A stretch of 64,000 nucleotides of DNA from a virus. Below are positions 11,205 to 55,397 of this stretch, piece after piece; position 1 is the stretch's first letter, and each line of letters starts with the position of its first letter. The stretch spans positions 51,615 to 115,614 of IMG/VR virus record IMGVR_UViG_3300027963_000048. One strand, 5' to 3'. A model generated the notes under the pieces. The model was not told where the DNA came from, ran no database searches, and saw only the letters and a program-made list of their open reading frames with translations. A program made the position numbers and the translations under genes.

Positions 11205-11474
11205 ATGAACACTTTAAACACCGCATGGCACAACTTCCTTAAAACAAACGGTGGAATAGAGCACGTTGTAGAAGTCTTGCTGTTTGACCAGCCAAAAGCC
11301 CAACGTCAAATGATAATAGATCACTACGTGAATGGAATGACGACTGAAGAAATCGGTAAGGCGTATGGGATTACCAAAAACAGAGTTAGACAGTTAATGA
11401 AAGCGAATTTAGCACTGCTTAAGGAATTCTTATATTATGTTAAGGATCTAGGTGAATTTTTATCTGAATTATAG
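11205..11474 (+). CDS. Sigma-70 region-4-like HTH protein (may be the C-terminal part of ORF 10905..11474)
   Basis: QRQMIIDHYVNGMTTEEIGKAYGITKNRVRQ. GGAGG RBS precedes ATG 11205. Confidence 0.65.
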   Translation: MNTLNTAWHNFLKTNGGIEHVVEVLLFDQPKAQRQMIIDHYVNGMTTEEIGKAYGITKNRVRQLMKANLALLKEFLYYVKDLGEFLSEL

Positions 11475-29829: not shown

Positions 29830-29981
29830 TGTGATGCTCCGTTTGTGATGTTGTGACTGGCTAATTGTAGCAGGTTTGATATTGTTTAATAATTATGTGT
29901 GTTGTATTGGAGGGTTATTTTTCCTATGTTCGTGGTCTGTCACATCATGCCGGGAAATTCACCAGTACTTGGAGTGATGAA

Positions 29982-31130
29982 ATGAACTTTGCAGCTGGCA
30001 CTGGCTTTGAGTTGCGACCTTATCAGCAGAGGATTATAAAGAAAGTGACAGACATGTTCAAGGGTGAATATGTCAAGAATGACCAGAAGCAGGTTTATAA
30101 TAGCGTTGTGATTGAGAGTCCTACTGGGTCTGGTAAGACTTGTATGATGCTTCTTACCGCTAGAGAAATGCAGAAGAGTATTCCCGGCTTGTATGTTTGT
30201 TGGTTTGCTATGCGTCGCAATTTGTTGCGGCAGGCAGCTGAGGAGAATACGCGTCGTGGTGTTGGAGTTGACATTCAGTTCTTTTCTATGTTTGGGAAAG
30301 AATTCGAAGATGTTTTGAGAGCTAAGGCTGAGGGTCGTAAGATCCTTGTGGTGTTGGATGAATATCAGCATGATAGTTGTAATACTATGGCTAATATTCA
30401 CAATGTGATACAGCCTGATTTTGTACTTGGTGGTACTGCTACACCTTACCGTACTGATAGCGCTAGTTTGAGCTATCAGGCGATTGTGAAGGATGCTGGG
30501 ATTCATACGTTGATTACTGAGGGTTTTTTGAGTCAGTATGATCATTATTGTATAGAGGATTGGAAGCCTGAGACGGTAGCTCGTCATTACTTGGCTGATC
30601 GTAGTAAGTGGGGCAAGAGTTTATTTTATTTCGTTAACACGAATTTGTGCCAGGAATTCCATGCGATTTTGCAGGCTAACGGTGTTGAGTCTGAGGTTGT
30701 CACTGCTAATAGTGATGATGAGGCGCAGATAGCTCGGTTTGAGTCTGGTGAGATTGATGTTTTGATTAATTGTATGAAGCTTACGGAGGGTTTTGATTGC
30801 CCTGCTCTTAGAACTGTATGGGTGCGTGATAGTGTGAAGGGTCCAACTGTGCAGATGGGTGGTCGGGTGCTTCGGAAGTTTGGTAATTTGCCTGTTAAGC
30901 AGATTGTGCAGAGTGTTGCCACACGTGTGCCATTCACTAGGGTTGCTAAGCCTCGCTATCAGACTTTGTTTAAGGATGGTAAGTGGTCGAGTTTGACTAT
31001 TAATCCTAAGATGGAGCAGATATCGATTATGAGTCGTGTTGCTTGCGCTAGCGCTATTACTGAGATGCCTCAGTTTATTACCAAGAATAAGCGTAAGAAG
31101 TCTCGGATCTTTGGAGCTCCTTTGGATTAA
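29982..31130 (+). CDS. SF2 (DEAD/DEAH-like) helicase
   Basis: LRPYQ, SPTGSGKT, LDEYQH, TATPYR, LTEGFDCP, QMGGRVLR. GGAG RBS before ATG 29982. Confidence 0.9.
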   Translation: MNFAAGTGFELRPYQQRIIKKVTDMFKGEYVKNDQKQVYNSVVIESPTGSGKTCMMLLTAREMQKSIPGLYVCWFAMRRNLLRQAAEENTRRGVGVDIQFFSMFGKEFEDVLRAKAEGRKILVVLDEYQHDSCNTMANIHNVIQPDFVLGGTATPYRTDSASLSYQAIVKDAGIHTLITEGFLSQYDHYCIEDWKPETVARHYLADRSKWGKSLFYFVNTNLCQEFHAILQANGVESEVVTANSDDEAQIARFESGEIDVLINCMKLTEGFDCPALRTVWVRDSVKGPTVQMGGRVLRKFGNLPVKQIVQSVATRVPFTRVAKPRYQTLFKDGKWSSLTINPKMEQISIMSRVACASAITEMPQFITKNKRKKSRIFGAPLD

Positions 31131-31207
31131 GTATTATCCTATAATATCTTTTGTGTTTCGATATTGTCATATAGTATTGTGGTTTTGGTGATTTTTAACA
31201 AGAGGAG

Positions 31208-32338
31208 ATGATGATGATGACGACTTTTAATTACGTGACCACCAATGTTAAGTCTTTGCGAGCTCACGTTGATGAGCAGCGGACGAAAACCGGTCGGTTG
31301 TTACGCAAGACTTGCGACAAGATTGAGATTGATGGTCAGGCTGCCCATCCGACCTCTAGGTTTTGGAATAGCTTGTATAGCATGTACGGGTTCAATGGTG
31401 CGTTTTTCAAGTACTTCAGCCATGATGAAGTGTTCACGCGTCTCCAGGAGCGTGATGATGATAGGGAGATTCGGGTGTGTGTGGAGAGCGATAATGGGGT
31501 TGATAAGTTGCTTGCTTGTACAAATCCCAATTCTGGTCTGATCACTTATGATGAGTTGATGGATTTGACTAGCACCTTGGGTGGTGACAAGGTTCGTTAT
31601 GCCAATGGTGTGGTTGAGTCGTGTCACAAACCTGCGGTTGGTGCTGGTGATGTGTCGATTGGTGGTGATCAGTTTACACCACATGTTACGCTTTCAGCAC
31701 CTATCGATGGTTATGGGTTGCCTAGTTTGTATTTGAGCTTGCTGCGTCAGGTGTGTTCGAATGGGTTGGTTGCTATGGATAAGGCTTTCCAGAGTCGGAT
31801 TTCGGTTGGTAAGAAGGATGGCAATGTTTCTTATAGCATTGCTCGCCATTTGCAAGGTTATGGTAATGATGAGGGTTATTCTGCGATCAGGCAGCGGATT
31901 TCGTCGTCGCAGACTTCTAGAGCGTCGTTGTTTGAGGTGACTGATCTTTATAACGCTATCAGCCGTGTTAAGGAGAATATTTCTAGTGTTGCACCAGAGG
32001 ATACCGCTGGTTCGATGGTGCAGCAGGAATACGGGATGAGCAATCGGTTTAGCGTGTCGAGATCTTTGGTTAATCTGGCTGGTGATGTGTCGAGCTTGTA
32101 TGGTTTAGCGTCCACTAGCATGGTTAATACTAAGAAATTGAAGACGTTGCCAGCTAAGTGTAGTGTGTATGACTTGATCAATTTTGCTACTGAGGTAGCT
32201 ACTCACCATTCTGATACTACTGCTGCTCGGCGTTTGCATGGGTGGGTTGGTAGTTTGATTAGTAACGAGTATGATCTTGAGGGTGCTAAGATGACTTTGG
32301 ATAGCAATGGCTTCAAGGAATTACACCTTAGTGCATAA
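31208..32338 (+). CDS. DUF932-like protein
   Basis: DG....LRQVCSNGLV and C-terminal YDLINFATE..TH motifs. Confidence 0.65.
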   Translation: MMMMTTFNYVTTNVKSLRAHVDEQRTKTGRLLRKTCDKIEIDGQAAHPTSRFWNSLYSMYGFNGAFFKYFSHDEVFTRLQERDDDREIRVCVESDNGVDKLLACTNPNSGLITYDELMDLTSTLGGDKVRYANGVVESCHKPAVGAGDVSIGGDQFTPHVTLSAPIDGYGLPSLYLSLLRQVCSNGLVAMDKAFQSRISVGKKDGNVSYSIARHLQGYGNDEGYSAIRQRISSSQTSRASLFEVTDLYNAISRVKENISSVAPEDTAGSMVQQEYGMSNRFSVSRSLVNLAGDVSSLYGLASTSMVNTKKLKTLPAKCSVYDLINFATEVATHHSDTTAARRLHGWVGSLISNEYDLEGAKMTLDSNGFKELHLSA

Positions 32339-32428
32339 TATTTATTGGTTTAGGTGCGAGGGGGATTGCCCTCTCGCACTTTCTTTGTCACATGTGGTCG
32401 GTGGTTCACGTGTTAGGAGGGGTGTGTT

Positions 32429-33171
32429 ATGGCGTTTACTAAGATTTGGGAAGATTTTAAAGCGTGCAAGGAGCCGTATTTTCGACTCGAATTGCCTAAG
32501 CCGTCGATGGAGTTAACTGCTGCTGCGCCTCCTCGTATTAGGAAGATACATGAGGAAGCACCTAATTTGACGATTGTGGAAATTAAGACTGATTTGCTGG
32601 ATGATGGGCGGTTTGCATGTCTGAAGGCAATGCGCGATTTGGATGATCAGAGTGCTTTTGGATTGCTGTTGACGTGGTGGAGTATGTTCGCTTTGGGCAT
32701 TGGGATGAAGCAGGTTATCCCTATTGATAGGCTCTCTGGAAAGGGGTTGGCAGAGGATTTACATCAATGTGGTTTTGCTAATGTGGTTAAAAGAAAGAAA
32801 TCGGGTGCTGGATTGTACACTTATCATAGTGTACTGTCCAAGGTGGGGAAGCATACTAAAATTATTGGTGTGGATATTGAAGCTGCCGATTGCCCTTGTA
32901 AATTTTCAAGGAGTGCGTAATGCCTAGTTTTAAGTTGACTATTGGTGTTGAGGTGGATGTTGATAATGTGATGGATCCTACTACTAGTTTGAATGTTATT
33001 AACAATAGGATCTATGATAAATGTATTGCTCGGGATGATGTAGAGTTCGATGGTATGGGTTTTACAAATGGGCAGTGCGAATTCGGGTTCACAGTTGAAG
33101 CGGTTGAATTGGCTGATGCTTTGAGTGTGGTTGTTGAATGTATTAGGAATTCTAACATTGGAGGTGTATGA
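32429..33171 (+). CDS. Two hypothetical proteins (32429..32920, 32920..33171)
   Basis: AGGAGG RBS after element 32362, TAATG coupling. Confidence 0.7.
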
Positions 33172-33383
33172 TGGGTAGAGCTAAGGTTGGTGGCGTAGGT
33201 GCACGTGATAATCGTGAATCTATTTTACTGCGGGTTGAGCCGTCTGTGGCTGCTTTGATTCGTGAGGCTGCTAGGCGTGAGGAGCGTACTCTTACTGCTG
33301 TAATGACGCGTGCTTTGCGATCTTATTTGAAGACCGAGCATGGTCCTGCTGCTGTCGATGAATATTGTAATTCTGCAGGGTGA
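33168..33383 (+). CDS. Ribbon-helix-helix DNA-binding protein
   Basis: ILLRV.P.....IREAARREERTLTAVMTRALRSYL pattern. Confidence 0.7.
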   Translation: MMGRAKVGGVGARDNRESILLRVEPSVAALIREAARREERTLTAVMTRALRSYLKTEHGPAAVDEYCNSAG

Positions 33384-33474
33384 TAGGGGATTTCTTGCTC
33401 ATCTGATTTCTGTCACAATTGGTTGGTGAGGGAGAACGGTTTTTCCTCACCAAATGCGAAAGCGGGAGGTTGCG

Positions 33475-34116
33475 ATGAGTTTCTTGAATAATCTAAAGTC
33501 CAAGTCGGTTAACAAGGCTACTAAGACTGGTGCAAAGAAGGGCACCAGTTGGATGCTAACTGAGGCAGCTCATATTGACGCGGTCAACGAGATCGTGAAG
33601 CTCGACCGTGAGGTTGATGCTATCAATGCCAAGATTAATGTTCGGAAGAACATTCTTAAGGGTGTTGCTCAGGAAAAATGGCTTTCTGATTATGTCCGTG
33701 AATCTGGATCTCCAGAATCTCCGATGAAGCTGTTGACTCCTGAGGGAGAGAGCTTGACCTATGTGGTGCAGGATCGCAGCGGCCAGGTGAAGGTCTCTGA
33801 TGATCTTCGTGAGCAGCTCGTAGTTGAGATTGGGTCGGATGCGGTTGATCGTCTCTTGTACGAGGAGACCACGTTCAGCTTCAATCGTGTGGCGTTGATG
33901 AACCCACAGATTGAGAAGGCTGTTAGCAAGGCCCTTGAGGCCTTGGTTGAGCAGGTGGCCTCTATCGATCCTGAGATTTCGTTGTTGGATGTCGAGCAGA
34001 AGGTGGCTTATAAGAAGCTTGATAATTTGACTGAGATTTGTGGTCATGATAGGGGTGCTATCTCCCGATTCGTTGAATTAATCGGCAGTGCTTTGGTCCG
34101 ATATTTGAAGGTTTAA
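33475..34116 (+). CDS. Hypothetical protein
   Basis: GGAGG RBS after element 33387. Confidence 0.75.
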   Translation: MSFLNNLKSKSVNKATKTGAKKGTSWMLTEAAHIDAVNEIVKLDREVDAINAKINVRKNILKGVAQEKWLSDYVRESGSPESPMKLLTPEGESLTYVVQDRSGQVKVSDDLREQLVVEIGSDAVDRLLYEETTFSFNRVALMNPQIEKAVSKALEALVEQVASIDPEISLLDVEQKVAYKKLDNLTEICGHDRGAISRFVELIGSALVRYLKV

Positions 34117-34207
34117 GGTCGTCCCTTGATGGGGTGGGGGGATTTCTCTCCCACCCCTTTATTGTCACATCGAATTGTCAGTTTGATAATAATAAGGAGG
34201 CGCAACG

Positions 34208-36124
34208 ATGGAAGCTGCTGTTTGGGCTAATCAGTTGGATTGTAACAGCATTATCAAGCACCTTGATGTTGGTGCGTTGTTTAAATTTCCAAATGATGAT
34301 ATGGTGATGTTATATCACGGGCGCGGGTGGTATTCAAATCCGACCCATCCCAGGAATCCTTTGATTCGGTTTAAGACTGGGATGAATACTGGAGTTATTA
34401 GAATTAATTAATTGGAGGGTGTGCGATGGCTGTTAATGCGGTGAAGGTTACTGATCGTGTTTCTGGAATTGCTGGCATGAATGCCAAGTTGAAAGAGGCG
34501 TTGGCTTCCGTGTGGGTTTTGGAAGGGCACGATGGCTTTTGGTCTTATCAAGTTGGCGCCAAGCCTGATACTACTCCACCAAGTGGTGCTGTGTTGGGGA
34601 ATGTGGGTGGTGGTATGGTTGCCTTATTTGTTGAGAATCAGGTATTTAATCATTTGGTTGAGATTGGTAGTGGTGCGTAGTAGGGATTTCTCTCCTCTCT
34701 CAACCCTGTCACAATTTTGTGTGGTGGTAATAACAAGGAGTGAGAAATGACAACTTACATGATAGTTCGAAGATATCAGAATGCCTGTAGGGGGGGGGTG
34801 GTAGAGCGTGGTTTGAGCCTTGAGGAGGCTCAGGCTCACTGCCGTAACCCAGAAACGTCCTCTAAAACTGCCACATCCTCATGGGCTGTGACATTAACTG
34901 AGAAACGTGGCCCGCGGTTCGACGGGTACGAGGACGAGGGTTCGTTTCTATAAGGAGTATGGTGATGTGGCAAGATTGGTCAGCGATCCTCAATAGTGGG
35001 GATCGCACTGCGATTATCAGTTGGCTTGCCTGGAATGATCCAAGTGGGGTTTATCTGGATAGTGATTGCGAGCTTGAAGGCTTGCCTTGTCTAGATATTG
35101 ATGCTGCTAGGGATTATATGCGTCGGGCATTGGAGAATGGATAGTGGGGGGGGGATTTTCATCCTCTTCTGGTTGTGCCACAATATCGTGTCCTTTTTTG
35201 GAGGTGAGCGATGATAAAGAAGCAATCGTTGTCGGTGTGGCGTAAGCAGTTTGCTGCTGAATACTTGCGTCGCGTCGGTATTACCATTGAGGATGGTGGT
35301 GCTGATGGGGTTGTTGAAAATTATTTTTCTGATAGCTTCACGCCAGCGGAGGCGGTGGAGCGTGAGATAGAGAAGTATGATTTGGCTGATATGTCTAACA
35401 TGTTTGGGTGGATGTAAACACTTAGAAAGGGGTTAATATGTCATCTGATACTGCTGGTAAGTGTGTTGAAACAATGTCGAATGTTTCGCAAGATGATTTT
35501 GAGGGTTTGTTTGAATGTGAGGATGTGTTTCGTAGTGATATAGATAAAGCGATACAGTGTGTTTATTATTTTGATGGAGTTGGTGGTGAGGTGGCTCATT
35601 ATTTTCCGTCGTTGAAGAGTGGCACGATTTTTAAAGTGCCACGGATTTGGCATGAGTCTTTTAAACCCAATCTTACTTTCGTTAGGAAATGGTTTGAAGG
35701 CGAGGAGATATAAATATATTCTCCCATGTCGTTTGGGCTGTCACAATTTGATGTAACCAAAGGAGATTTTGCGATGAAAGTGATGAATCACGCTGAATAC
35801 CAAAAGAACCTCCAGAAGAAAAGCTGGAGTGCGTTGTGGTACACTGCAAAGGACGCAATGGAGGCTGCGCAGGCCTACCCTGAGGGAGAGAACGCGTCGT
35901 ATTACCTCGATGAGGTCAATTATTGCCTGGATGAGATTGCCAGGCGTAACAGGCTTGAATTGAAGGTGAAGGTGAAAGATCAAGACACCATTCACACGAT
36001 CTACTCCGACTTGTCGAAGGTGGGTTTTGTGATGAGGGAGATTTACCCTACTGGTCACTTGGTCAGTTGCAGAGCTTTCGATAAGGCTGCTGCTACTGAG
36101 TTGTTGTGTGGTGGGCTCAAATAG
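34208..36124 (+). CDS. Small early-type proteins: 34208..34411, 34426..34680, 34747..34953, 34959..35144, 35211..35417, 35438..35713, 35774..36124
   Basis: Each has an RBS, and most directly follow a GGGATTT-N17-TGYCACA element. Confidence 0.7.
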
Positions 36125-36540
36125 TGGGGAATCTCTCGCACCCCTTTCTTTAGTGCTTTGTGTGCAAATGGTACGATTACTGCGGATTTGTAGATTAGGG
36201 TAAAGCGTCGCTTTGATTTGTTGCGACAGTTGCGTGAGCTTGATGCGTAACGGCACCCAGTTGCCGAGCCACCTTGTACTTGTGGGGTGGAGCTGGAGGT
36301 ATAGCCCCTGAGCCTTACGTTGTTCGGTGCAATCACCTGTGCCTTATATCGGGGGATGGTGTTGGCGCGAACAGACTCTCCGTCTGTTACAAGCCCTAGG
36401 TTAGGTGCGTACTGCGTTGGTATTAAACACTAAACCTAGATTCAAGTAATTGAGAGATTCTTGGAGCTTTGATGGGGTGCCACAATTGAGAGGTCAGCAA
36501 TTGGAGCTGTGTGGCACCCCATCATTTTTGGAGATGAACA

Positions 36541-36825
36541 ATGGATACTGATGAATCTTACTCGAAGTTGAAAACTCGTGCAGAGCGATTGTTGGTATTA
36601 GTGCGTCAAAACGCGCCCTTTGAAATTATTTTCAATGAGATTATGCTGTTGCATAATATGATGCCTGAGTTTGAGGAAGCTTACATTAAATGGGTTGTAA
36701 GCCAGGCGAAACGTACAATTGAGAAGAATAGGAATACACGCGGGTTATGTTCAGAATGCCCGGCACAGTTGGGGGATGGTGAGGAGATCTGGTGTGAAGC
36801 GTGTGGCAAGCAATATGATGTGTAA
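36541..36825 (+). CDS. Hypothetical protein with C-terminal CxxC...CxxC zinc ribbon
   Basis: GGAG RBS, CSEC...CEAC. Confidence 0.65.
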   Translation: MDTDESYSKLKTRAERLLVLVRQNAPFEIIFNEIMLLHNMMPEFEEAYIKWVVSQAKRTIEKNRNTRGLCSECPAQLGDGEEIWCEACGKQYDV

Positions 36826-36831
36826 TTGATG

Positions 36832-36862
36832 GGGAGGCAGCCGAGAGGCTGCCTCCCTTTTT
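36832..36862 (+). terminator. Intrinsic terminator
   Basis: GGGAGGCAGCC-GAGA-GGCTGCCTCCC followed by a T-run. Confidence 0.85.
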
Positions 36863-36936
36863 ATTCATATATATAAGGATGCTGGGCGAGGATTTCTCCC
36901 CGCCCAGCGTGTTTCCTCTCTGGAACATGTAGTATG

Positions 36937-37817
36937 CTACTGGATGAGGGAATTAAATATATGCATTCCATGGCCGCGGACAATAAAACTAGCGTAATCG
37001 GTTGCAATGTCGAAGTTTTCGAAAATATGTTTGGTCAATTCGCCCTTCATAATTAATGGGATGTGTTTTTCTCTTTTTAAAAGAGCAATTTGGTCTGGTC
37101 CTGTTCTTGCTTCGTTTCGCCTATCGAAAATGCCGACGAGGCCATCGCATAGGGTGACAAAATCTGGTTCATCCATCACAACCGTAGTGATATGTCGGCC
37201 ATTTACATTGAATTCTTTTTTGAATGGTGCGCTCATATTGCTCCTGTGGTTAAGTCGTGTCCGTTTCATTTTGGCATCAGCCGGGTGGTAGAGTAATTAC
37301 TCCACCACCGTTTTTGTTAAGCGAAGAGTGGAAAGCCTGGGACTTTTCCAGAGCTGTTGGTTACGAGGCGGCCCAGAGCTGTTGGTTGGCGCTGTGAGAT
37401 ATGCGGTCGGTTACATTCTCCGCCACTACGATCTCTAGGATCTTATTAGCGACGCGTGTTAGGGTGTCTCGGTCTGTGTGCCAACTGTAGCTAGTGCACG
37501 CTGATCCGTCTTGAATTGGCTCGTCTTTGTAGTAGATGGTATAGCGGACGAGTGGTTGGTCATTGTCTGCTTCGCCATAGTCTCCATTTAATCCTTCTCC
37601 GTCATATGAGAGGATAACTTGATGGTCGCCGGTGCTACTTACTATGTCATCGAAATGCATGTTAGCTCCTTTGGGGTAGGTTGTTGTGGGCGTCTTGTGG
37701 CACCTTAGGTGCTACTGCGAATTTCTCTGGCCACTTGGGTGCCTCCGGGCAATCTTTGGCGTGAAATTGAACGTCAAAGAAGAAACTATACTCGTATTTG
37801 CAATGCGGGCAGCTCAT
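36937..37817 (-). CDS. Three small proteins (36937..37236, 37361..37660, 37662..37817)
   Basis: GGAG RBSs, co-oriented. Confidence 0.6.
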
Positions 37818-37948
37818 TTGATCTCCTTGTGTTGGATCACCTCGATTGTTTGTGACAGCGCAGTTGATGTGGGATAATGGGTTTTCCCCTGTCGTTATGT
37901 CTGTCACAATTTGATGCAGTTTGATTCCCAGTAACCGCGGAGGCTAAG

Positions 37949-40514
37949 ATGAGATATCGTGAGTTCATCAAACCTTGGATCGTGGGCCCGATGGCAGAGT
38001 GGGAAATCATGGAGATCGGTCGGGCATGCCGCACGCCAAATGGTAAGGGCATCAACCTTACGTGTCTCACCGACGGAGGTGAGAGGGTGTTGAGTGTGCG
38101 AAAAACCGGCGGCGAAAAATACAACAACGTTGCCATCACAGAATGGTGGGACAAATACCTTGGCCTGATGCCATCGCGTCTGGACTGCCCTAAGACCCCA
38201 AAGGGAAGCGTGGTAGTGAAGGTGGTCCCGATAGAATAGTGGACAGGCATGTTGGTGGGGGGATTTCTCTCCCCGCCTTTGACTGTCACAGGAGGGAGTG
38301 ACGGGACGAATGACACACGGAGAAACGGAATGCTAGACCAAATTGCGGAAATTGCGAATATGGTACAAGCTCAACCAATCATCAAGTTTGTCGAGACAAT
38401 CGACGACGAGTGGCACCGGTGGGTTTTGTCTGGCGCCAGAGTTGGGTCCGCTGCCCCTTGGGCTCTCACGTTCGATACTGAAATAGATGGTCGAGATCTT
38501 GTTGTGGAGAGTGCTGTTGGGCTTTCTGAACCAGAGAGTCAAGAATTGTTGCTCCAGATCCATCAGCTTGTCGAATTCCCAGAAGTGCCAGAGTAGGGGG
38601 ATTTTTCTCCCCTCGCCTTTGGCTGCCACAGAATTATGTAACCGACCTCAAACCAAGGAGACGACGATGGAATTCAAAAAAGGCATCCTTTGGGGCGGGA
38701 AATTTGGACGCCCACCCACGGTCGAGCTCCCCACGCCGGGAGCCAATCAGGGGAAGATCATTGATTACATTCAAGAGGAACACAGGATTTTTTTCGAGGT
38801 CGGCTATTTTGCCGACGGGCTCTGGTGTTCCTTCGAAAGGGCTTTCGACCATGAGGAAGCATTAGAGAAACAAGCTAGGCTGGCATATAGTCACCAGCGT
38901 GACTGGGCAATCGTACAGGTTGACATCAAGATCACACGAAAGTTTGTGTAGGGGGGGATTTCTCCCTATTTGGCAGACTGTCACAATTTACTGGTGGTGA
39001 AATTGGTGTCAGGGAGTGCGACAATGACTTACAGTATTACGCGTTTTTTTGAAAACGGCAGCCGGGAATCGATCGCTACGGGTTTGAGCCTAGAGGAGGC
39101 GCAGACTCACTGCAAGGATCCGCAGACAAGTTCCAGGACTGCGTCGGAGTCCTGGGCTGTGGCTCTGACTGCTGAGCGCGGAAGGTGGTTTGATGGGTAC
39201 GAGTCAGAGGATAATTTTATCTAGGGGTGATTATCCTATTCATGGGACCCTGCCACAATTTGTTGTGGTGGGGCTTGTGGGTCATAGAAAGGGATATTAG
39301 CTATGGCTGTGTGGCGTTATCGTGACTGTGTCAGTACGTTTAACGTTGGCGGTCAAGACCGCCAAGTTCGTATCCACTGGATCGAACATCGTCGTAATGT
39401 CGATAATGTCGAGCTCGACTATTATGAGTTCGTGGACGGGTTAGACCCAGTAGAACTGGATCTAGACTTGGTGGAGTTCGAAGCGGTTCAAAATTCGACC
39501 CATTATTTGAGGTGGAATCATGATTGCGATTTGGAAGAATTGCCTAGGTTAAATTTAGAAGAAGGAGATGGTAATGTACGGTGAACCCTCATCTTATTAT
39601 GATTTCTTCACACCTACGTTTAGCGAGCTAATTCATGATTACGCTCGTGGCGTAGGTGACCAACATCCTGATCGCTGTTGGCTCACCACCCCTTATGACA
39701 CCTTTGTACGTAACCCATTTTATGCCGGACCGGAACAGCCTTGCCCTGAACTTTAATCGAACGCAAACGGGTGGGGGGGATTTCTTCCCCCACCTTCTAC
39801 TGCCACAAAATAATGTAACCGACCAATAACCAAGGAGGCCAAAATGATCGAGCTAGAATTTGACATGTCTGTGCAGTTAACTGACACCGAGAAGCTGTCG
39901 GCCATGCTCAGGTCGATTGCTGACCAAATCGACAGCGGCGCGTGTGGCAGCAAGATCATTAAGGATGGCTTGGCCGGCCAGTGGAGACTCTACGACCCAT
40001 ACGAGCAATAGTGGAGGGGGGATTTCTTCATCTGGCTTCTATTGTCATAATTTGGTGTAACCAAGGTAGTCGGGCTGTCACAGCTCGATGGGGACGGAAA
40101 GCTAACGTTAGGAGGTCTGGGATGTCTTACTTGGAAGCTGCGTTTGATGCGGTGATCAAGGACAGCAAGCCGTCGGAGAAGTGGTATGTGGTCCTCATGG
40201 AGGATAGCTCCTATTATGGAGGCCCGGAAGAAGGGGGCTGGTGGGGACATGATACTGACGTGCTGAAGTACGCGGTATTTAATAACGAGGAAGCGGCTTT
40301 GCAAGCCAAGGAGCGCGTGAAGGAGTTGGCTGCTGAGTTGGAGGCCCAAGCTCGCACTGAGTATGGTGAGGGGTGTTTACGGCAGTTGGAGTGGTTGGAT
40401 GCTCGCGGCTTGGATGCGGATTTCTTTCCTGAGGATGATGGTCCGAGTAGGTATTGGGTTTATTGTGGCCAGGAGATTCCTCAGCCCTCGGTTGGTCCGA
40501 GGCATTATGAGTAA
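37949..40514 (+). CDS. Small early-type proteins: 37949..38239, 38330..38596, 38667..38951, 39024..39224, 39303..39584, 39568..39756, 39844..40011, 40122..40514
   Basis: One gene per element, starts set from RBS. 39844..40011 (55 aa) is absent from the ORF track but is paralogous to 47598..47816. Confidence 0.72.
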
Positions 40515-40525
40515 ATAGGTTATTG

Positions 40526-40608
40526 CTCACCGTGGTGTAATGGCAGCCACAACGGACTTAAAATCCGTTGCTCGAAAGGGCGTATGGGTTCGAGTCCCAT
40601 CGGTGAGA
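40526..40608 (+). tRNA. tRNA-Leu(TAA)
   Basis: Acceptor CTCACCG/CGGTGAG, anticodon arm ACGGA-CTTAAAA-TCCGT, long variable arm, ATGGG-TTCGAGT-CCCAT, discriminator A. No encoded CCA. Confidence 0.92.
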
Positions 40609-40617
40609 TTTGAAAGG

Positions 40618-41001
40618 ATGTCAAGGATGGTTAAGGTTCGGTTTCATTTGGCGCGTGGTGCCAATTTTAAGACGTGGCAGGTTATTGATAATGGTGTGGT
40701 TCGGTATTACGATCCAGATGCGGTGTGTTTAAGGATGTTCGGTTGTCGTTTGAAGAATCGTCGTCGAGTGGCAGATAAGATTTTTGCTGGCGAGGATAAG
40801 ACGGTGTGTGCTTGGATTGATTGTGAGCGGGTTGAGGTGGGCGATAGTTCCTCCTTGGAAACACGAGATAATCAGAATATATTGTCTTTTAATCCGAAGG
40901 TTGTACCTTATTGGGTTCGCGATGGTGAGTGTGCTGAGAATCTCGATGGGATGGTATTTTCTGAAATAATTAGTAGGGGTCGTCGTCTTATTGTAATCTA
41001 A
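40618..41001 (+). CDS. Hypothetical phage protein
   Basis: KVRFHLARG.NF..WQ motif. Start moved downstream of the tRNA. Confidence 0.7.
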   Translation: MSRMVKVRFHLARGANFKTWQVIDNGVVRYYDPDAVCLRMFGCRLKNRRRVADKIFAGEDKTVCAWIDCERVEVGDSSSLETRDNQNILSFNPKVVPYWVRDGECAENLDGMVFSEIISRGRRLIVI

Positions 41002-41061
41002 TGGGAATGGGTGGAGTTCACCCATTCCACATTGTTCGTTTAGTCCAGGGTCTTGTGGTGG

Positions 41062-41640
41062 TTAGTTGGTGCCCCATGGGTTGGAAGGCAACAAGTGCCT
41101 ATACGCTTTGCACAAGTATTCTTCAAGGTCTTCATCCTCCTGGAGGGCTTTCATGGCGTCAGAAGTGTTGCCATGCACGCGTTCACTTATTACACCATTC
41201 GGGTAAGATACTTGCACGATGCGGAAACTGAGACCTTCCCATTCCACTGGCTTTCTGAAGATTCTGACTTTATCACTGGCGTAATCGAACATCAGTCTTC
41301 TCCTTGTGGCTGGGGGCGGCTTGCCGGTCGTCAGCTCGCTCCCCCCGGCCCCGCTTTATTATGACAGCCCCCGGCGCCGGGGGAAATCCCCCCCCGCAGC
41401 GCGGCGGAGGGGCATCACCTGTTATTGCTCGGCATTGGCACAGAATTGTGACAACTTCCAGGACGCTTCACTGCCGAGGACGTCGGCTAGTGCTCTGTGA
41501 ATTTCCGTCGTGGGTCCTCCGGCGGAGACCCACGAGTGGTATTCGTTGAGGTGTTTCAATGTTTGGCCATATTCGCTGATTGCGTACGCTTCGTACGCTT
41601 CTAGCAGGCAAGCTTCAGGGTCCAACTCTTCAGGGTCCAT
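41062..41640 (-). CDS. Two small proteins (41062..41292, 41422..41640)
   Basis: Each is downstream of a minus-strand element (41360, 41677) and has an AGGAG RBS. Confidence 0.7.
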
Positions 41641-41784
41641 CTTAAACCTCCTTATTCTAGTGCCGTCACATCATTCTGTGGCAGTGCGTGCGAGATAGGA
41701 GAATCCCTATATGGGGGGGATTTCCTCCTGGCGTGACGGGTGTCACAGATGGGTGTGACCGAAGTAACCCTAGGAGACCCAACG

Positions 41785-42777
41785 ATGGAATTCTTGAAAT
41801 CAGTCGAATTCGAGTTTGAAGGCAGCCTCTTCATTGCCACTCTGACTGACTCGGACGCGATGTCGGTGGCGGAGATCGATGTGTTTGGGCGAGACGATGA
41901 CGCAAGAAATCGTCTCGAAGATGACGATTTCTATGACAGGATCTATCAGCATGTGAACAATCGTTTCGTTTAATGTTGCGTGTGGTGGAGGGGGGGATTT
42001 TTCCCCTCCACCATTGCTGTCACAGTAAATCGTTAATGCAAAGGGGACTGCGATGGAAAGAAAAAGTGGCGTACCGGTGTTGCACTTCTGCGATGAGGAC
42101 CTGACACTCATCGGAATCGATCCAGAGCGCGTTGATGACGAAGCGTTCGAGCGCATCCTAGACGGGTTACGCGAATATTACAACACATCCTTCACGGATG
42201 TGTTGCAGGACATTGTGGCAGGTGTGTTGGACGGAGATTAGCCAACTGGCGGCAGTGGGGATTCCTCCCTCACCTGCCGACTGCCATAAGTTGGTATAAG
42301 GAGATGATGATGAAAAACGTCAGCGCACCGAAGCGTGTAGAACGCAAAATCACGATTGTTATCGACCAGACTCGCGTGAGCCGTGGCCACTTGGCAACGA
42401 GTGGGGCTGGGACTCACCAAGATCGTCGCCAAAGGCGGCGAAAGACTCGGTCGGCGGCACTTATGGCTTGCATGGAATAGGGGGATTTCTCACCTGCCTT
42501 TTGTCTGTCACAATTGGTTATGAGAAGCCAAGCCGAGTGACGCTTGGCTAGTGGGTTACTTGTCAGACCAATCATTCACATGGAGCCGAACATGACCAAG
42601 CACCAGACAGCGCTATACGAAGCAACTACCACACTGATGGCTAAGCTCTCCATAATCTCAAACTATTTGGGTGTCGCCCTTATGTATAACGACGACGGTA
42701 AACTCAAAAAGGCGATCGAACAACTCGATGAGGCCCAGAATCTCGCCATCACCATCCACAACAGTACCTCCCGATAA
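41785..42777 (+). CDS. Small proteins: 41785..41973, 42053..42241, 42304..42480, 42592..42777
   Basis: One per element. 42304..42480 (58 aa, basic, GAGTHQDRRQRRRK) was read by hand. Confidence 0.68.
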
Positions 42778-42955
42778 AGGCATAATCTCCCCCACGGCAT
42801 CTAAAGCTTGCGTAAATGCTTCCGCAAAAACGTCGACACAAATGTAGTTGCGCACTAACCTTGGAAACGGTGCGCGAGTTCAGGTGGGGGGATTTCTCCC
42901 CCACCATTTGGCTGCCACAGTTTAACGTAACCGACCCAAAACCAAGGAGACGAAA

Positions 42956-43357
42956 ATGAGCATCAGCGATTACAACATGATGACAGTCGGCAAAGCTAAT
43001 TTCACACTTGCTAATGACAAACACCGATGGACATATCAGATCAACCAAAGCAAAGACGGAAGATGCTACTTCGTCAGTGTCCTGTCCGGCGCGGACAATA
43101 ACGCTGACTATGCGTACCTTGGCATCTTCAAGCCTGAGAACGGGTCAGTCAGTCTCACAAAGGCATCGCGGTTCACGCCAGAATCAATGCCCTTCAGGGC
43201 TGTAGCCTGGCTAGTGCAAACACTCAAAAAAGGCGAGCCGCTAACTCATAACTTCGAGCTAAAATGGGCCGACCAATGCCAACGATGTGGCAGGACACTT
43301 ACTGTCCCATCATCGATAGATAGTAGAATTGGGCCAGAATGCGCTAAGAAGGTGTAA
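42956..43357 (+). CDS. DUF6011-like zinc-ribbon protein
   Basis: CQRCGRTLTVPSSI..RIGPEC C-terminus, VL.G.DN..DY.YLG. Confidence 0.75.
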   Translation: MSISDYNMMTVGKANFTLANDKHRWTYQINQSKDGRCYFVSVLSGADNNADYAYLGIFKPENGSVSLTKASRFTPESMPFRAVAWLVQTLKKGEPLTHNFELKWADQCQRCGRTLTVPSSIDSRIGPECAKKV

Positions 43358-43359
43358 CC

Positions 43360-44004
43360 GTGAGGCTACCCGATGATGTTAAAGATGTGCATCTCCTTGG
43401 AGACATCCATGGAGATTATGGTAGGCATGATCGCGTTGCTAAAAAGCACCATTATACCATTCAATTGGGTGACTTTGGTTTCAAGTATGATTCCTTAAGA
43501 AAACACGACCCGAGTTATCACAAAGTGCTTGGTGGTAATCATGATAATTATGATCTGATTGGTAATATGCCTCACTACTTGGGTGACTTTGGTACTTTTG
43601 AATTAAGCTCACCGGAGTTCACTTATAGTGTTATTAAAGTGTTTTATATTAGGGGTGCAGATAGCATTGATAAACAGTTGCGTACGATTGGTGTAGATTG
43701 GTGGCAAGATGAGCAATTGACTATGGCGAGGATGAATGAGGCTTTGGATTTGTATGGTAGCTACAGGCCGGATGTTTTGTTAAGTCATTCTCCGCCGTCG
43801 TTTGCGATTGAGTGGTTTTGTGTTCCCAGGTTACCTTTTGCGTTGACTGAGTATTGCTTGGATGTTATGCATGAGGTTTATGCTCCGAAGTTGCATATTT
43901 TTGGGCATATGCATAAGACGAAGGTTAAGAAGTTTGGATCTACTAAGTTTGTTTGTGTTGATATTAATCAGACTATCAGTTTGGTAAAGTCTTTTCGTGG
44001 GTAG
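43360..44004 (+). CDS. Calcineurin-like metallophosphoesterase
   Basis: GDIHG, QLGDFG, GNHD, LSH.PP, FGHMH. Confidence 0.9.
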   Translation: MRLPDDVKDVHLLGDIHGDYGRHDRVAKKHHYTIQLGDFGFKYDSLRKHDPSYHKVLGGNHDNYDLIGNMPHYLGDFGTFELSSPEFTYSVIKVFYIRGADSIDKQLRTIGVDWWQDEQLTMARMNEALDLYGSYRPDVLLSHSPPSFAIEWFCVPRLPFALTEYCLDVMHEVYAPKLHIFGHMHKTKVKKFGSTKFVCVDINQTISLVKSFRG

Positions 44005-44049
44005 GGTTGGGTGTCACAGTTGTTTGTGGTCAAAGTGTGGAGGTGTTGA

Positions 44050-44226
44050 ATGGAGTGTTTGGGGTGCGGTAAGACGATTCCGGCTGGTCGGTTGGAGATT
44101 TTCCCTCACACGCGGTTTTGTGTGGGGTGTGTTGATAAGCACCCGCAGGGGGTTAGTTATGATTATTCGCATGTGGTGGCGCAGTCGTCGTCATCTGGGC
44201 GTAATGGGTTTGCTAAGTCGGATTAG
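44050..44226 (+). CDS. TraR/DksA C4-type zinc-finger protein
   Basis: Hand translation: MECLGCGKTIPAGRLEIFPHTRFCVGCVDKH..., matching C..CG..IP..RL...P....C..C. GGAGG RBS. Confidence 0.8.
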   Translation: MECLGCGKTIPAGRLEIFPHTRFCVGCVDKHPQGVSYDYSHVVAQSSSSGRNGFAKSD

Positions 44227-44247
44227 ATAAGAGTTGCTGTGTTGTGG

Positions 44248-44589
44248 TTAGCAGTCCCATTTTCTGAGGGCTTTGCAGATGTCTTTGTCTGGGTTGGCTC
44301 GACAGTCGATGTTGTGCATTTTCTTTTGGCCTTCCATTCTTGCGCAGAATGATTTTCGGCGTTTTGCTTTGGCTGGTGATTTTTTGGCTGCTTTGGCACT
44401 TACGGGTGGTTTGAGGTTTGCACCTTCGGTGCGTTTGAAGTGGGCGCGGCCTTTGGCGTTTAGGCCTCCATCTTTGGCCTGGTATTTTTTGGCTACTCCT
44501 TCAGCTACCGGTTTGATGCTAGTTTGTTCTGCACCCGGGTGTAAACTATTTAAAAGTTCTGCGTATGCGGCTGTGTAAGCGTGTTTCAT
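44248..44589 (-). CDS. Basic conserved phage protein (possibly DUF6321-like)
   Basis: GGLNAKGRA...NLKPPV...RRKSFCARM...LRKWDC. Confidence 0.65.
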   Translation of the reverse strand: MKHAYTAAYAELLNSLHPGAEQTSIKPVAEGVAKKYQAKDGGLNAKGRAHFKRTEGANLKPPVSAKAAKKSPAKAKRRKSFCARMEGQKKMHNIDCRANPDKDICKALRKWDC

Positions 44590-44693
44590 GTTGTCCTCCG
44601 GTATGGTATATTTGTTTCCTCCCTGGAACATGGGGGGTCCCTTATCGCCCGATATCAGGCGATAACCTTACCAGCCGTTCACAACACAAACCC

Positions 44694-47600
44694 CTACCGC
44701 AAAACCAACACCCTCACTCGCTCCTCGTCCTCTTCTCGGTCGTCGTCGTCCTCATCGTTCTCAATCAAAGCAATACCGCTTTTGCTGTAGCCGCTCGTCT
44801 TAATGTTCGACGTTTGGATACCCAAAGCGTCCCTGATCGGCAAAAGCTGCTGCGTGTGGCTGATATCGCCGTAATCACAGCACAAAAGGACAGGCTGATC
44901 ATCGTCAACGTCCTCAATCAGCCGTTTCAGTTCACCAGCAGTCATCGTGGCGTGCAAAACTTGCTTGATCTCGTAGTTATTAGAAGCTTTCATCGCTATC
45001 TCCTCTTCTTTCGCCAGGTGGGGTGTCCGCCCCTCCCTCCCCTCTGTGGCAGGGGGAGGGGCTCCCGTTAATTGTTAGCGCCTGATATCAAGTGCTCCGC
45101 CGTTTGATGCTGTCTCTCATAGCGACGCAATCCTCGATGCAAAAGCCGGTGCCAAGGATATCACCGCTATCCGCCAGAAGCCAGCGATCCGGGTGTCTTT
45201 CGCTGCTTTCATGCGTCCCTGGTGCAAAAGCAACCATCCGGTTCGGGTTGGTGGTCCATGCTTTTCTCGCTTGTTCCATGCTCATCGGTTTCATGTCTTC
45301 TCTCCTTTTCGTCACCAGGAGAGGTGTCCGCCCCTCCCTCCCCTCTGTGGCAGCCCGCCGGGGCGCGGAAAATCCCCACCGCCGCAGCAGCTCGCAGCGC
45401 CGGGAGAAAAGCCCCCGCTGGGTGGGGTTTCTCCGGCCCTTACCGACTGATATCAAGGACAGGGGAGAAAACCCCCCACCAGAACCGACTTGTTACTCGT
45501 CTGCACTTCCAGACCTGGACAGGTTCGGATTTTACCACCGGGTTTAGATTGCATCGTTATCCGTGTATTTAAAAGTTTTCATAGTTACCTCTTCCACTCC
45601 CTACTTACAGTTACCTTAGCAATACCATATTGAGCTTCGCTCATTTTCTTTAAGGCATCATGTACAAATTGAGTTCGTTTACTAGGGCAAATGGCAAACT
45701 CCAAACGAATACGGTCGTCATCCCTTTCATCAAACTCAAAGATTAAACAATCCTTTAGATCTAGCACTAGATGCTGCTCCATCGTGACCTCCTAATCTTT
45801 ATTCCCGACCACTCCCTCCTGTGGCACCAAAGAGGCAGGGGAGAAACCCCCCTGCCTCCAGCCAACCCGTTACTCTTCGTCGTCTTCGTCCTCGTACGCG
45901 TGGTGAGGGTCGTCTTCCTCACTTCCGTCGTCCCCTTCCCACAAGACAGTGTAGCCGACGCTCTCGTCAGCGGCTGCGGCTACCAAAAGCTTAAGCTGTG
46001 CTACTGCGTCTTCAGCCTCTTTGAGCTCAAGACGCAACCGCCCAAGAGCGTCGCTCTTGGTTGGGCAGTGAACAAAGGCGTCCTTGTCCTCGCCTTCACC
46101 GTAGTTCTCAAAGTCGTTACAAACGCTTCGAGGGTAACCGGTACCGTAAAAAAGCGTCCCCTTGTGAAGAGAAAAGACCTCCTCCTGCGGGAACTCACCA
46201 CCGTCGTGGCCCCCTGGGTGTTCAACCAGGTCACAGAAAACCACTTCACCGACTTTACTTCCCTTTAACACTTAGGTCTCCTTTGTTAGTGCCACTCGTC
46301 CCCGTCACTCCCTCCTGTGACAGCACACAAGAGGGAGAAAAACCCCTACTCCGTAACTTCTGGAAACTCCACCAGCGTGTGGATCTCCAGCAGGAGCTCT
46401 TGGCTCTCGTCCTCGGAGAGCCCCACAGCACTCTCCACTGCTAGATCTCGTCCCTCGATCTCAGTGTCGAACGTGAGCGTCCAAAACGCGTTGGAGCCGA
46501 CCCGAAAGCCAGACAGCTCCCACCGATACCACTCGTCGTCGATCGTCTCGACGAACTTGATAGTCGGCTTAGTCTGTGCTAAGGGCCTGATATCTGCGAA
46601 AAATGCCGCCATTTCATTCTCTTGTGTGTCGTTCGCGTCCCCATCTCACTGTGACAGCCACGGGAGCCGGGAGAAATCCCCCCCAGCCCCAGAATCAAAC
46701 CGCTATTCCTCAATCCTCAGCTCGCACACCGGCTAATCTTCTGGTATGTGAATCTGCAATCTTGCCTTAGCAGCCAACGCTTTCAATAACGCGTCTTTGC
46801 GTTTCTGCCAACAATCCTTGTGATCAGCTAAGCAGACCATACGGTCCGCTATCGGCGTGTCTCTCAGACAAGGCGGTAAATTTTCCACAAGACCTCCCGT
46901 AATGAATGCCTTTCGATCCCGTTTTCTGTAACAGTTTACTTGATGGTAAGATACCCCTATACCCCCTGTTTCCTCGCTGGAACATGGGGGGTATATATAG
47001 AGGCCTGAAAGCGCCGTGGAGCCACGCCTCCTACTCTTCGAGATAATCGTTCTCAAACAAGTAATCAAGAGCCCACATGATCTGCTTAGCCGTGTAGCCA
47101 AGAGAACCTAGCTTCTCTCCCATCTCGAAATAGAACCAACCGTCACCACCTCTTCGATGAAGGATGGGCCTGGCAGTTCTCAGCGCTATTGTCAGCAATA
47201 CCCGTTTTTCCGCAGTGCACATTACCATCGCTGTCTCCTGTGTTGGGTGTCATTCCGTCTCAGTTAGTCTGTGACAGCCAGAAAGGGTGGGGGGGAATCC
47301 CCCCACCATGGCCGCCATGTACTACCCGACTAGCACTTTCGTCGTGCCATTACCGATGATAGGCTATTCGCAAGGCCCACTAGAATTAGTGTTTTTAATG
47401 GTTCAATCCAAGGAGTGTTTGATATGAAAATTTCTTGCAACGTTAACGCCTTGCAGAGATCGATCATCTGTTGCCAGTCTTGTAGGTCGGCCATTCGTCG
47501 TCTCCTTGTGGGCCCCGGGCTCCGCCCTGCTGTGGCAGCCCGCCGGGCGGGAGAAAAGCCCCCCCGCCGCAACAGCCCCCGGCGCCGAGAGAAATCCCTA

Positions 47601-49505
47601 TTCGGCAGGTGCTGTGATGCCAATTGCTGCCAACTCCTCCTCGTAGGGGTCGTAACAGCACCAGTGGCCTGATAGGCCATCCCGCGAGACCTGCTTACCA
47701 CAGTTCCCGTTCTCGATTTCATCTGCGATTTTCCGCAGTGCCGCCACCAAGACGGTCGAGTCGGTGTACTGCAAAGACACTTCGAGTTTCAATTCTTCGA
47801 GCTTGTGCCATCCCATGGTCGACTCCTTTTGTTGCTGGTCTCTCGTTCCCAATCTATTGTGGCAGCCAAAAAGCAGGGAAGAAATCCCCCCCGGAGGCTG
47901 GAGCTACGAAAATTATCATACATGCAACAACTGCGGTTCCTCAAAATCCCACTGCCAACCACTCCCAACCCACCGACACCAACAGCCCTGCGGAATACCC
48001 CAAAACTGAAACGGATCCTTGTCATACCCACGACCCGCGGCCTTCGCACGACATTCACTCAAAGAATCACCCGTAAACGCCATATCATCCACAGTCATCA
48101 CGTAGTACTTGAACATCACACCCTCCATCGTTGATGCCACCACACAAAACTGTGACAGTAAAAACAAGGAGGAAAAATCCCCCACAAAATCACGCAATAC
48201 CACCATTATCAGCAATAATACGCTCCACCAAATCAACAGGAACCCAACCGTAAACCGTACGAGTCGGCTCCTCCGCATCCTCCGCAAAAGGCATCAGCTC
48301 ATCAACTACAAGATTAGGAAAACCAACCTCCACTTCACTAAAAGGACCAACATTATCCCGCGGAGCACAATAATGCGCATGGCTAGCCTGCACAGAAAAA
48401 CGCAACCCACTCTTGCAAACAACCTCACGCGCCAAAACCCCAGCACGATTACTACAAAGATAATCATTCAACATAGCACAATCCTCCTCGTATAGTGTTG
48501 TTTCCTAGTTGGAACACAGGGGGGGTGTCGGCAGGGCGGGGAGACGATCCGCCCCACCGACACAAGGGATCATATCCCAAACTCAGCACACACCTCATCC
48601 ACCACACCATTCGTGGCAGCCAAAACTTCCTCCAAATTCACCGTATAATCCGAAATCACATCCCAGCCATCATTCCCATACACAAGATTCACATAACCAA
48701 CACGAACACCGTCCTTATAGAAAAAGATCGACTCCTCATCCACCGTCCTACAAGCCTCCCAAAGCTCAGTCGCATCGGTGGACTTGTGAACGGTGACTTC
48801 CTCACCATTGAAAACCGACAGCGCAAACCCCTGCTTGATCGCATCCTCCATCATGAAGGTTACTATCCGACGCTCCATCTGCATGCGATTCTGAAGCTGC
48901 TTGCAAGTGATTTCCTCGTACGCCATGTCAAGCCTCCGGAAAAGGTGTCCTTCATTCCCAACTCACTGTGACAGTCAAAAGGCGGGAGGAGAAACCCCCC
49001 GCTCGGTGCCACCTTACTTGGTGGGCTTACCATTACGTCTGGCAATCTCGTCCAGACAATAATTAACCTCGTCGAGGTAATAGGACGCGTTCTCTCCCTC
49101 AGGGTAGGCCTGCGCAGCCTCCATCGCGTCCTTTGCGTTGAACCACAACGCACTGTTACTTTTCTTCTGGAGGTTCTTTTGGTATTCAGCGTGATTCATC
49201 GCTTTCATCGCTTTCATCGCAAAATCTCCTGAAAAGGTGTCCTTCATTCCCAACTCACTGTGACAGTCAAAAGGCGGGAGGAGAAACCCCCCGCGCCGAT
49301 GAGCCGGTTGTTACTTGGTAGTGGGGGCGCCGTAGAACCGGGTCATTCCACCACGGGCCTTGGCGCCCTGCGAGCCACGCAACACGCCGCGTTTTGCCTG
49401 CGACTTGGTGCACGCACGATCCATTGCGAAGATCTTCCCGAAAGTGCGGATCGCACTGCCTTCACGCATGGCTTCAAGATCGATTGCGTCTAGGTGACGT
49501 TCCAT
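44694..49505 (-). CDS. Small early-type proteins: 44694..44993, 45088..45294, 45585..45782, 45870..46271, 46346..46612, 47031..47228, 47330..47494, 47598..47816, 47916..48116, 48190..48474, 48570..48926, 49014..49217, 49311..49505
   Basis: Each has a GGAG-type RBS. All but 48190..48474 directly follow a minus-strand element. Confidence 0.7.
48939..49294. repeat. 64-bp exact direct repeat of element plus leader (48939..49002 = 49231..49294)
   Basis: GAAAAGGTGTCCTTCATTCCCAACTCACTGTGACAGTCAAAAGGCGGGAGGAGAAACCCCCCGC occurs twice. Confidence 0.92.
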
Positions 49506-55324: not shown

Positions 55325-55397
55325 TGGGCCCTCCGGGATTCGAACCCGGAACCAAGGGATTATGAGTCCCCTGCTCTGACCGTTGAGCTAAAGGCCC
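55325..55397 (-). tRNA. tRNA-Ile2(CAT) (lysidine-type; Met not excluded)
   Basis: GGGCCTTTAGCTCAACGGTCAGAGCAGGGGACTCATAATCCCTTGGTTCCGGGTTCGAATCCCGGAGGGCCCA, resembling bacterial ileX. Confidence 0.88.

Follow-up and report, generated by a model that had tools for sequence, protein, structure and literature searches.

The array and its bipartite element

The DNA analyzed here is a window of 64,000 nucleotides (nt), comprising bases 51615-115614 of the 115.6-kb viral record IMGVR_UViG_3300027963_000048 from IMG/VR, and our subject is an array within it of about 30 tiny genes in a 20-kb stretch, each preceded by its own copy of a repeated unit made of a hairpin, a putative promoter, and a leader. 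The completeness of the record was estimated at ∼32% with CheckV, so that a huge phage is indicated, and the virus encodes a DnaE-type polymerase whose best match (36% identity) belongs to an uncultured 484-kb phage. The window also codes for a RuBisCO-like protein, Laminin_G_3 proteins, and enzymes that modify sugars. The majority of the genes behind the units have no Pfam or PHROG function, and the array DNA gave no match when compared with GenBank phages by megablast.

The element at the core of the unit consists of two boxes at constant spacing, GGGATTT-N17-TGYCACA. The strict pattern was matched 17 times in the window, against an expectation of 0.01, and 16 times across the whole record, with all matches confined to one ∼15-kb stretch of the array; a looser scan recovered 32 copies between 29.9 and 49.3 kb (Table 1). 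These copies are arranged in a plus-strand arm (29.9-44.2 kb) and a minus-strand arm (49.3 down to 44.25 kb) that converge near 44.24 kb, and some minus-strand cassettes sit within the plus-strand arm. For 31 of the 32 elements a gene start on the same strand was found no more than 110 nt downstream, typically ∼37 nt past the second box, and the cassette genes are preceded by a strong, AAGGAG-type ribosome-binding site. In most copies the GGGATTT box occupies the loop and the 3' arm of a hairpin that pairs a G-run with a C-run; the outer stem pairs of this hairpin differ between copies in a compensating manner, and 17 of the 32 copies fold with z <= -2 relative to shuffled sequences. Three to five T residues often follow directly after the stem, and a generic terminator scan flagged several of the elements. 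On the basis of this anatomy, the unit appears to be a composite of a terminator or attenuator for the upstream gene, a non-sigma-70-like promoter, a leader, and a ribosome-binding site. A stoperator-like operator and a REP-like repeat were also considered for the element and dropped; both the spacing of the two boxes and their distance to the start codon are fixed.

The GGGATTT and TGYCACA boxes are unlike the sigma-70 consensus and unlike the Mot-dependent, T4 middle-mode consensus. Sigma-70-like sites numbered 27, compared to 19.4 +/- 4 in shuffled sequence, which is a marginal difference, and they were not positioned before genes. A sigma-like factor encoded by the phage probably recognizes the putative promoter of the element. 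Two proteins are candidate readers of GGGATTT-N17-TGYCACA, one of 189 amino acids (aa) that possesses region 4 only and one of 313 aa (Table 1), and either could confer the specificity. The ∼32 aligned promoters provide a sharp consensus for an as yet unassigned sigma factor or RNA polymerase specificity.

Two relatives that carry the same elements were found by a metagenome scan, using a pattern with a spacer one base shorter than N17. They are designated L007 (a 19-kb contig, of which 13.4 kb was examined) and L005 (4.2 kb). The corrected pattern yielded two chance matches only in viral_contigs, in which relatives of a 375-aa neighboring protein were not found, and no copy of the motif was present in the 484-kb phage with the closest polymerase. 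A 130-aa cassette protein used as query retrieved 112 loci at identities up to 53%, and none of these 112 loci carries the motif.

Table 1. Positions of the array, paralogs, leaders, structural differences from L007, and candidate sigma factors (window numbering unless noted).
Feature	Position	Strand	Remarks
Hyperplastic array	29913..49291	both	∼32 co-oriented copies of GGGATTT-N17-TGYCACA
Paralog c1 (GLSLEEAQ family)	34747..34953	+	partner 39024-39224
Paralog c2	39024..39224	+	56% to c1 over 66 aa, E 2e-23
Paralog f1 (MNHAEYQKNLQKKS family)	35774..36124	+	full length, 116 aa
Paralog f2	49014..49217	-	5' fragment of f1, ∼first 62 codons
Paralog l1 (KFVETIDDEW family)	38330..38596	+	partner 46346-46612
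Paralog l2	46346..46612	-	72% to l1 over 95 aa, E 6e-45
Paralog p1	39844..40011	+	not in L007
Paralog p2	47598..47816	-	50% to p1 over 56 aa, E 2e-18
Promoter-leader block, copy 1	48934..49002	-	before unrelated gene 48570-48926
Promoter-leader block, copy 2	49226..49294	-	upstream of f2
GTAACCGACC..AACCAAGGAG leader family member	38597..38670	+	with 39774-39847 and 42886-42959
Orphan promoter and leader	40018..40066	+	cut at Shine-Dalgarno site, fused to second -10-like box upstream of gene 40122
Replacement	35152-36085		left joint in -35 G-run; right joint within f gene
1.39-kb block	36845..38231		three minus-strand genes and gene 37949-38239; missing at this L007 position
Replacement	39522-40087		right joint at -10 box or leader of gene 40122
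Whole cassette	41043..41419	-	gene 41062-41292 and element 41360-41391; L007 has 10 nt instead
Replaced 1.0-kb stretch, window only	41560..42578		right joint at Shine-Dalgarno site (42579) of gene 42592-42777
Replacement	42791-42912		right end exactly at -10 box
Single cassette (gene 45088-45294)	45053..45300	-	in window, not in L007
189-aa protein, sigma-70 region 4 domain	10905..11474	+	Pfam Sigma70_r4 34.7 bits, cut-off 24.1
313-aa sigma-70-family protein	G000:C1:304-1245 (outside window)		region 4 at 56.7 bits, weak region 2

Paralogous genes and reused leaders

All stop-to-stop open reading frames (ORFs) of the window were compared with one another by blastp, and the window was searched for repeats. 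The first-pass annotation of this DNA had named four pairs of paralogs, and each of them proved to be real, with 50-82% amino acid identity and E values from 2e-18 to 6e-45; its statement that three of the four span the opposed arms was likewise borne out, these pairs being inverted between the plus-strand and minus-strand arms. The pair c1 and c2 is present also in L007, where c2 is 100% identical and the c1 copy has a 49-nt insertion at 34939. For f1 and f2, reported earlier as near-identical DNA with a different C-terminus, the proteins are 82% identical over 74 aa (E 4e-39) and the DNA is 92% identical over 179 nt, with the homology extending from the Shine-Dalgarno site to ∼25 nt short of the next hairpin. 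The C-termini differ because f2 is a 5' fragment, which stops after ...LDEIARRN. A third version of the gene, f3 (57% identical), occupies the place of f1 in L007, under another promoter.

At the DNA level, l1 and l2 agree with 74% identity over 243 nt, and the similarity extends into the downstream hairpin; the transcription element of l2 is predicted at 46650-46681. The leader that precedes l1 is located on the downstream side of l2, and the leader of l2 itself matches that of l1 in its 3' part only. This layout fits a circular cassette that was reinserted after opening at another point of the unit, a reading that is only suggestive at 74% identity.

Four instances of leader reuse had been described from the letters alone, and all were recovered by the repeat search. 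The exact 64-bp block before genes 48570..48926 and 49014..49217 is the core of a 69-nt block at 99% identity (48934-49002 and 49226-49294), and f2 sits between the two copies. Similarly, the 31-bp leader common to 45022 and 45323 is the exact core of 42-nt blocks at 93% identity (45011-45052 and 45312-45353), which comprise a -10-like box and leader. The sequences noted at ∼38600, 39777, and 42889 belong to a 74-nt family of three members at 74-80% identity (38597-38670, 39774-39847, and 42886-42959), with three unrelated genes downstream. The remaining instance, GGAGGGAGTGACGGG following the elements at 38260 and 46316, needed to be amended: the reuse is genuine, with copies after the -10-like boxes at 38284 and 46322 and a variant after the box at 45826, but the leader at 46316 precedes gene 45870-46271 and not the paralog at 46346-46612.

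Regulatory blocks compared in 465 pairs had a median identity of 59%, in comparison to 76-89% for the reused blocks, which are therefore marked as recent copies; the blocks of the GTAACCGACC..AACCAAGGAG family were 76-82% identical. The promoter-leader at 40018-40066, orphaned in the window, stands before the f3 gene in L007 and L005 (96.6% over 58 nt).

Structural differences between the window and its relatives

The blocks that L007 and L005 have in common with the window are 97-99% identical, and the differences between these genomes are therefore recent. Comparison of L007 with the window over 34.9-45.4 kb revealed 12 structural events, the larger of which are listed in Table 1. As a consequence of the right joint of replacement 35152-36085 falling within the f gene, L007 has the 57%-identical f3 behind another promoter. 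One joint of the 36845-38231 block is in the loop of a terminator and the other is ∼27 nt short of the next unit, with a 4-nt CCGA microhomology, and divergent versions of its three minus-strand genes (36-67% identity) occur elsewhere in L007 and L005. A 9-nt duplication at ∼38952 has its joint in the -35 G-run. Because the 41560-42578 joint is at a Shine-Dalgarno site, an identical protein stands under different leaders: the product of gene 42592-42777 is 100% identical in the two genomes, with a leader that is long in the window but short, of the GTGACCGACC..AACCAAGGAG type, in L007. The window leader of this gene (42513-42591, plus strand) is unusually long at ∼80 nt, has hairpin potential, and gave no Rfam match. 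For the 45053-45300 cassette, the gap in L007 falls exactly between the 42-nt direct repeats, and the crossover lies within their 31-nt exact core.

Five of the seven events of at least 100 nt end in a regulatory block, a class of sequence that covers 13.7% of the DNA (binomial P = 8e-4); the remaining two are losses of entire cassettes at cassette boundaries. The joints have no common position: some fall in the G-run or at the -10 box, others in the leader or at the Shine-Dalgarno site, and still others 20-30 nt ahead of the unit. The cassettes missing from L007 (36845-38231, 41043-41419, 41560-42578, and 45053-45300) and the minus-strand arm as a whole (44250-49500) have 48-57% G+C compared to ∼45% for the backbone, which is consistent with recent acquisition.

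Two of the breakpoints coincide exactly with an acidic tail, DC[ED]LExLPxL, that forms the C-terminus of three otherwise different small proteins (window 35064-35112 and 39522-39584; L007 5035-5086). The tail of gene 34962-35144 recurs in L007 as a 49-nt copy inserted into the end of the 34747 homologue, and in window ORF 39303-39584 the tail starts at the 39522 joint. One possibility is that the tail is a mobile peptide tag; another is that it is a hot spot at which segments of paralogous genes recombine.

Gene order and repeats around cassettes

The cassette order is different in all three genomes. With N1, N2, and N3 denoting genes that are not in the window, P-stub a truncated promoter copy, and a prime a divergent version, the order is e f1 g [h i j] k l1 m c2 n o p1 q in the window, e' f3 g l1 m' c2 n N1 (P-stub) [h' i' j'] q in L007, and n N1 (P, remnant of e') N2 f3 N3 g' [h' i' j'] q in L005. 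The promoter-leaders on the same genes also differ between genomes.

Long direct repeats surround several of the cassettes. L007 has 108-nt repeats at 99% identity, which span a promoter, a leader, and the initial 13 codons of a gene, around a 3148-bp block of 8 genes, as well as 78-nt repeats at 99% around one gene; in the window, the 69-nt blocks at 99% bracket f2. Bracketing repeats of this kind would arise if a cassette were duplicated in tandem or if a one-unit circle were inserted by a single crossover. L005 joins N1, via the repeated promoter, to the e'/f3 side, which is the predicted product of recombination between the 108-nt repeats of L007.

Two genes were seen in L005 and in neither the window nor L007 (1854-2573 and 3436-3621, both on the minus strand). 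One encodes a 239-aa protein with a faint Xre-like helix-turn-helix match, and the other encodes 61 aa and has a classic terminator after it. A TCAT microhomology within the remnant of another cassette seems to have been the insertion site of the 61-aa gene.

Proposed recombination between units and alternative explanations

We consider it probable that the array is a hyperplastic region in which cassettes are shuffled by recombination at the repeated regulatory units. In the mechanism that we propose, almost every small gene of no assigned function would be a self-contained cassette. The cassette would start with the G-run/C-run hairpin and its few T residues, which probably end or attenuate transcription of the preceding gene, and would continue with the bipartite promoter, a leader of ∼37 nt, and a strong Shine-Dalgarno site. 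The ∼32 units, with their common stretches of 20-70 nt, could thus serve as portable homology, and homologous and microhomology-driven recombination between them would delete, duplicate, insert, replace, and reorder cassettes; the same recombination would exchange promoter-leaders among unrelated genes. Joints at units leave working genes, and such products would therefore survive. Plain illegitimate recombination elsewhere may contribute some of the events. The simplest account calls for no dedicated enzyme: ordinary recombination among the copies of the regulatory DNA suffices to explain the data.

The first-pass annotation had likewise proposed that recombination at the element or leader reassorts genes, and the comparison upholds it: two relatives at 97-99% identity differ from the window in cassette content and order, with many joints in units. 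Rather than a conserved order with breakpoints away from the element, we found an order that differs and many joints in the -35, -10, leader, and Shine-Dalgarno segments. That annotation also saw no integrase, and we found none: no match to tyrosine recombinases (PF00589) was obtained in the 115.6-kb record, which is incomplete, using a search in which the control genomes all matched, and no serine recombinase was seen in the same record. Its suggestion that the reassortment is integron-like was not supported, given that the cassettes have their own promoters and both orientations, that the crossovers are variable, and that several joints have 4-nt microhomologies off the element.

Several observations weigh against shuffling at the units. 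Regulatory blocks constitute 49% of the non-coding DNA, and joints are not enriched in them relative to non-coding DNA alone (7-8 of the 22 event ends), so that the clustering might reflect the survival of joints that fall between genes. Roughly half of the event ends are in coding DNA or at 4-nt microhomologies off the element, including one joint designated J1, the 36845-38231 joint, and the left ends of 41043-41419 and 41560-42578. RecA-family recombination genes were not found in the record, which represents ∼32% of the genome. The promoter and terminator roles of the units are predicted from sequence anatomy, and the comparison is one of three metagenome assemblies, in which the 31-nt exact repeat might mislead an assembler at 45053-45300.

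The lack of joint enrichment in blocks lends some weight to the view that the elements are promoters and terminators only, and that turnover proceeds by random illegitimate recombination and duplication with intergenic joints being viable. The joints with a mere 4-nt microhomology off the element (36845-38231, 41043-41419, and the N2 insertion) are also as this view would have them. We nevertheless regard it as unlikely, on three grounds: long direct repeats derived from units enclose four cassettes or blocks (42 nt at 93%; 69, 78, and 108 nt at 99%), a relative lacks one of these cassettes and its crossover lies within the repeat, and three joints lie exactly at conserved boxes (35152, 40087, and 42912). 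That the differences among the window, L007, and L005 are artifacts of chimeric assembly at short repeats is highly improbable, even though all three are metagenome contigs and repeats of 31-108 nt are within the k-mer range of assemblers. The prefixes of L005 and L007 differ (Ga0114968 and Ga0209189), so they are apparently separate assemblies, and they have in common novel joints and genes that are missing from the window; moreover, several events have no repeat at the joint (36845-38231 and 41043-41419), and different-length protein variants of these genes are present on many public contigs.

An integron-like system, in which the hairpin would be the recombination site of a dedicated, unseen site- or structure-specific enzyme that moves cassettes, could account for the covarying hairpin stems with their conserved loop, the gain and loss of single cassettes, and the l1 and l2 leaders that look circularly permuted, and the record covers only ∼32% of the genome. 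We judge it very unlikely all the same. In addition to the missing tyrosine and serine recombinases, no HNH nuclease was found in the 115.6-kb record, and a weak resolvase-like match turned out to be an MgsA/RarA-type AAA+ ATPase instead. Crossovers occur at many positions of the unit, the cassettes are self-promoted on both strands, and the distance from element to start codon is fixed, as for a promoter. A more specific form of this idea, for which we hold out little hope, is that the GATTT-loop hairpin is the target of a dedicated phage structure-specific nuclease or hairpin recombinase that excises and reinserts cassette circles. If that were true, the array would be an integron-like viral gene-capture system built on a promoter element, and the permuted l1/l2 cassettes and the exact gains and losses of single cassettes would be its traces.

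The ATPase mentioned above is encoded at 17633-18736 on the minus strand (MgsA_C 107.8 bits, RuvB_N 65.2 bits). Proteins of this type are bacterial replication/recombination-associated factors and are unusual in phage.

Comparison with known systems

The closest known system is the promoter-early stem-loop (PeSL) cassettes of the T4-type phages RB49/phi1, T4/PST, and KVP40/nt-1 (PMC2839356, PMC4122927). A PeSL comprises an N17-spaced promoter, a G(n)-loop-C(n) stem-loop that is able to overlap the -35 box, and a ribosome-binding site; PeSLs mark hyperplastic regions of genes without assigned function, in which insertions, deletions, and replacements distinguish near-identical phages, and recombination between tandem PeSL units removes the intervening DNA and gives mini-circles (PMC2839356, PMC4122927). 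The array resembles this arrangement in the layout of its units, which combine a hairpin, a putative N17 promoter, a Shine-Dalgarno site, and a start codon (on the same strand for 31 of 32 elements), with G(n)-loop-C(n) hairpins overlapping the upstream box. The units are also concentrated in one hyperplastic region before genes of no assigned function, and the differences between near-identical phages lie at or beside units (five of seven large events, without excess relative to non-coding DNA). A possible counterpart of the PeSL tandem-unit deletion is the loss from L007 of the 45053-45300 cassette, bounded by its 42-nt repeats.

In contrast to the PeSL-bearing phages, this virus is no recognizable relative of T4, as judged on its DnaE-type polymerase (36%) and ∼32% of the genome, in which T4 core genes were not searched for. 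The GGGATTT/TGYCACA boxes are not of sigma-70 or Mot type, the units lack sequence homology to PeSLs, and the promoter and terminator activities of the units, like any mini-circles, are putative. With these qualifications, PeSL-like mobile regulatory cassettes, so far published for T4-type phages, would now extend to a huge phage that is apparently unrelated to these and whose predicted promoter does not resemble that for sigma-70. This suggests that a layout of terminator, promoter, and small gene, combined with shuffling, is a general and convergent means of accessory-gene turnover in large phages. Length variants of these cassette proteins are encoded on numerous public metagenome contigs of up to 254 kb; with so many close relatives, the locus is a clean natural experiment in which recombination rates and hot spots would be measurable.

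With integrons, which are defined by IntI, attI, and attC, the array has in common small, mostly single-gene units, a repeated hairpin element, and the gain and loss of single units. An IntI-type integrase was not found in the incomplete 115.6-kb record, however, and the cassettes are self-promoted on both strands, whereas integron cassettes are promoterless, have one orientation, and depend on a common promoter. Unlike attC, the element has no single crossover point and stands at a fixed distance from the start codon.

The SAS/ESAS sequences of Cluster K mycobacteriophages contain a 13-nt start-codon box for which a role in translation has been proposed, with no role in shuffling shown (PMC3203893). 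Like the units described here, they are short conserved sequences with a ribosome-binding site and sometimes an upstream inverted repeat, and they are repeated in one orientation before genes of different families in one phage lineage. They differ from the array, which has a promoter-like bipartite motif 30-45 nt upstream and leaders in several families.

Other features of the region

A tRNA-Leu(TAA) gene is located within the cassette array (40526-40608, plus strand) and was the sole Rfam match. It overlaps the 5' end of ORF 40540-41001, making the call of that ORF doubtful. A tRNA-Met gene is present at 55325-55397 of the window. The gene adjacent to the orphan promoter-leader, 40122-40514 (plus strand), belongs to PHROG 24642, for which a function is not assigned, and has homologues with 43-46% identity in Gordonia and Mycobacterium phages and with up to 53% identity in many uncultured viral contigs and contigs of metagenome-assembled genomes. 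Given how widespread these homologues are, at least some of the cassettes draw on a widely shared phage gene pool. Outside the array, at 25220-25720, ORF translations on both strands are internally repeated (70-100% identical over 13-47 aa), which points to a tandem DNA repeat region near the strand-skew switch.

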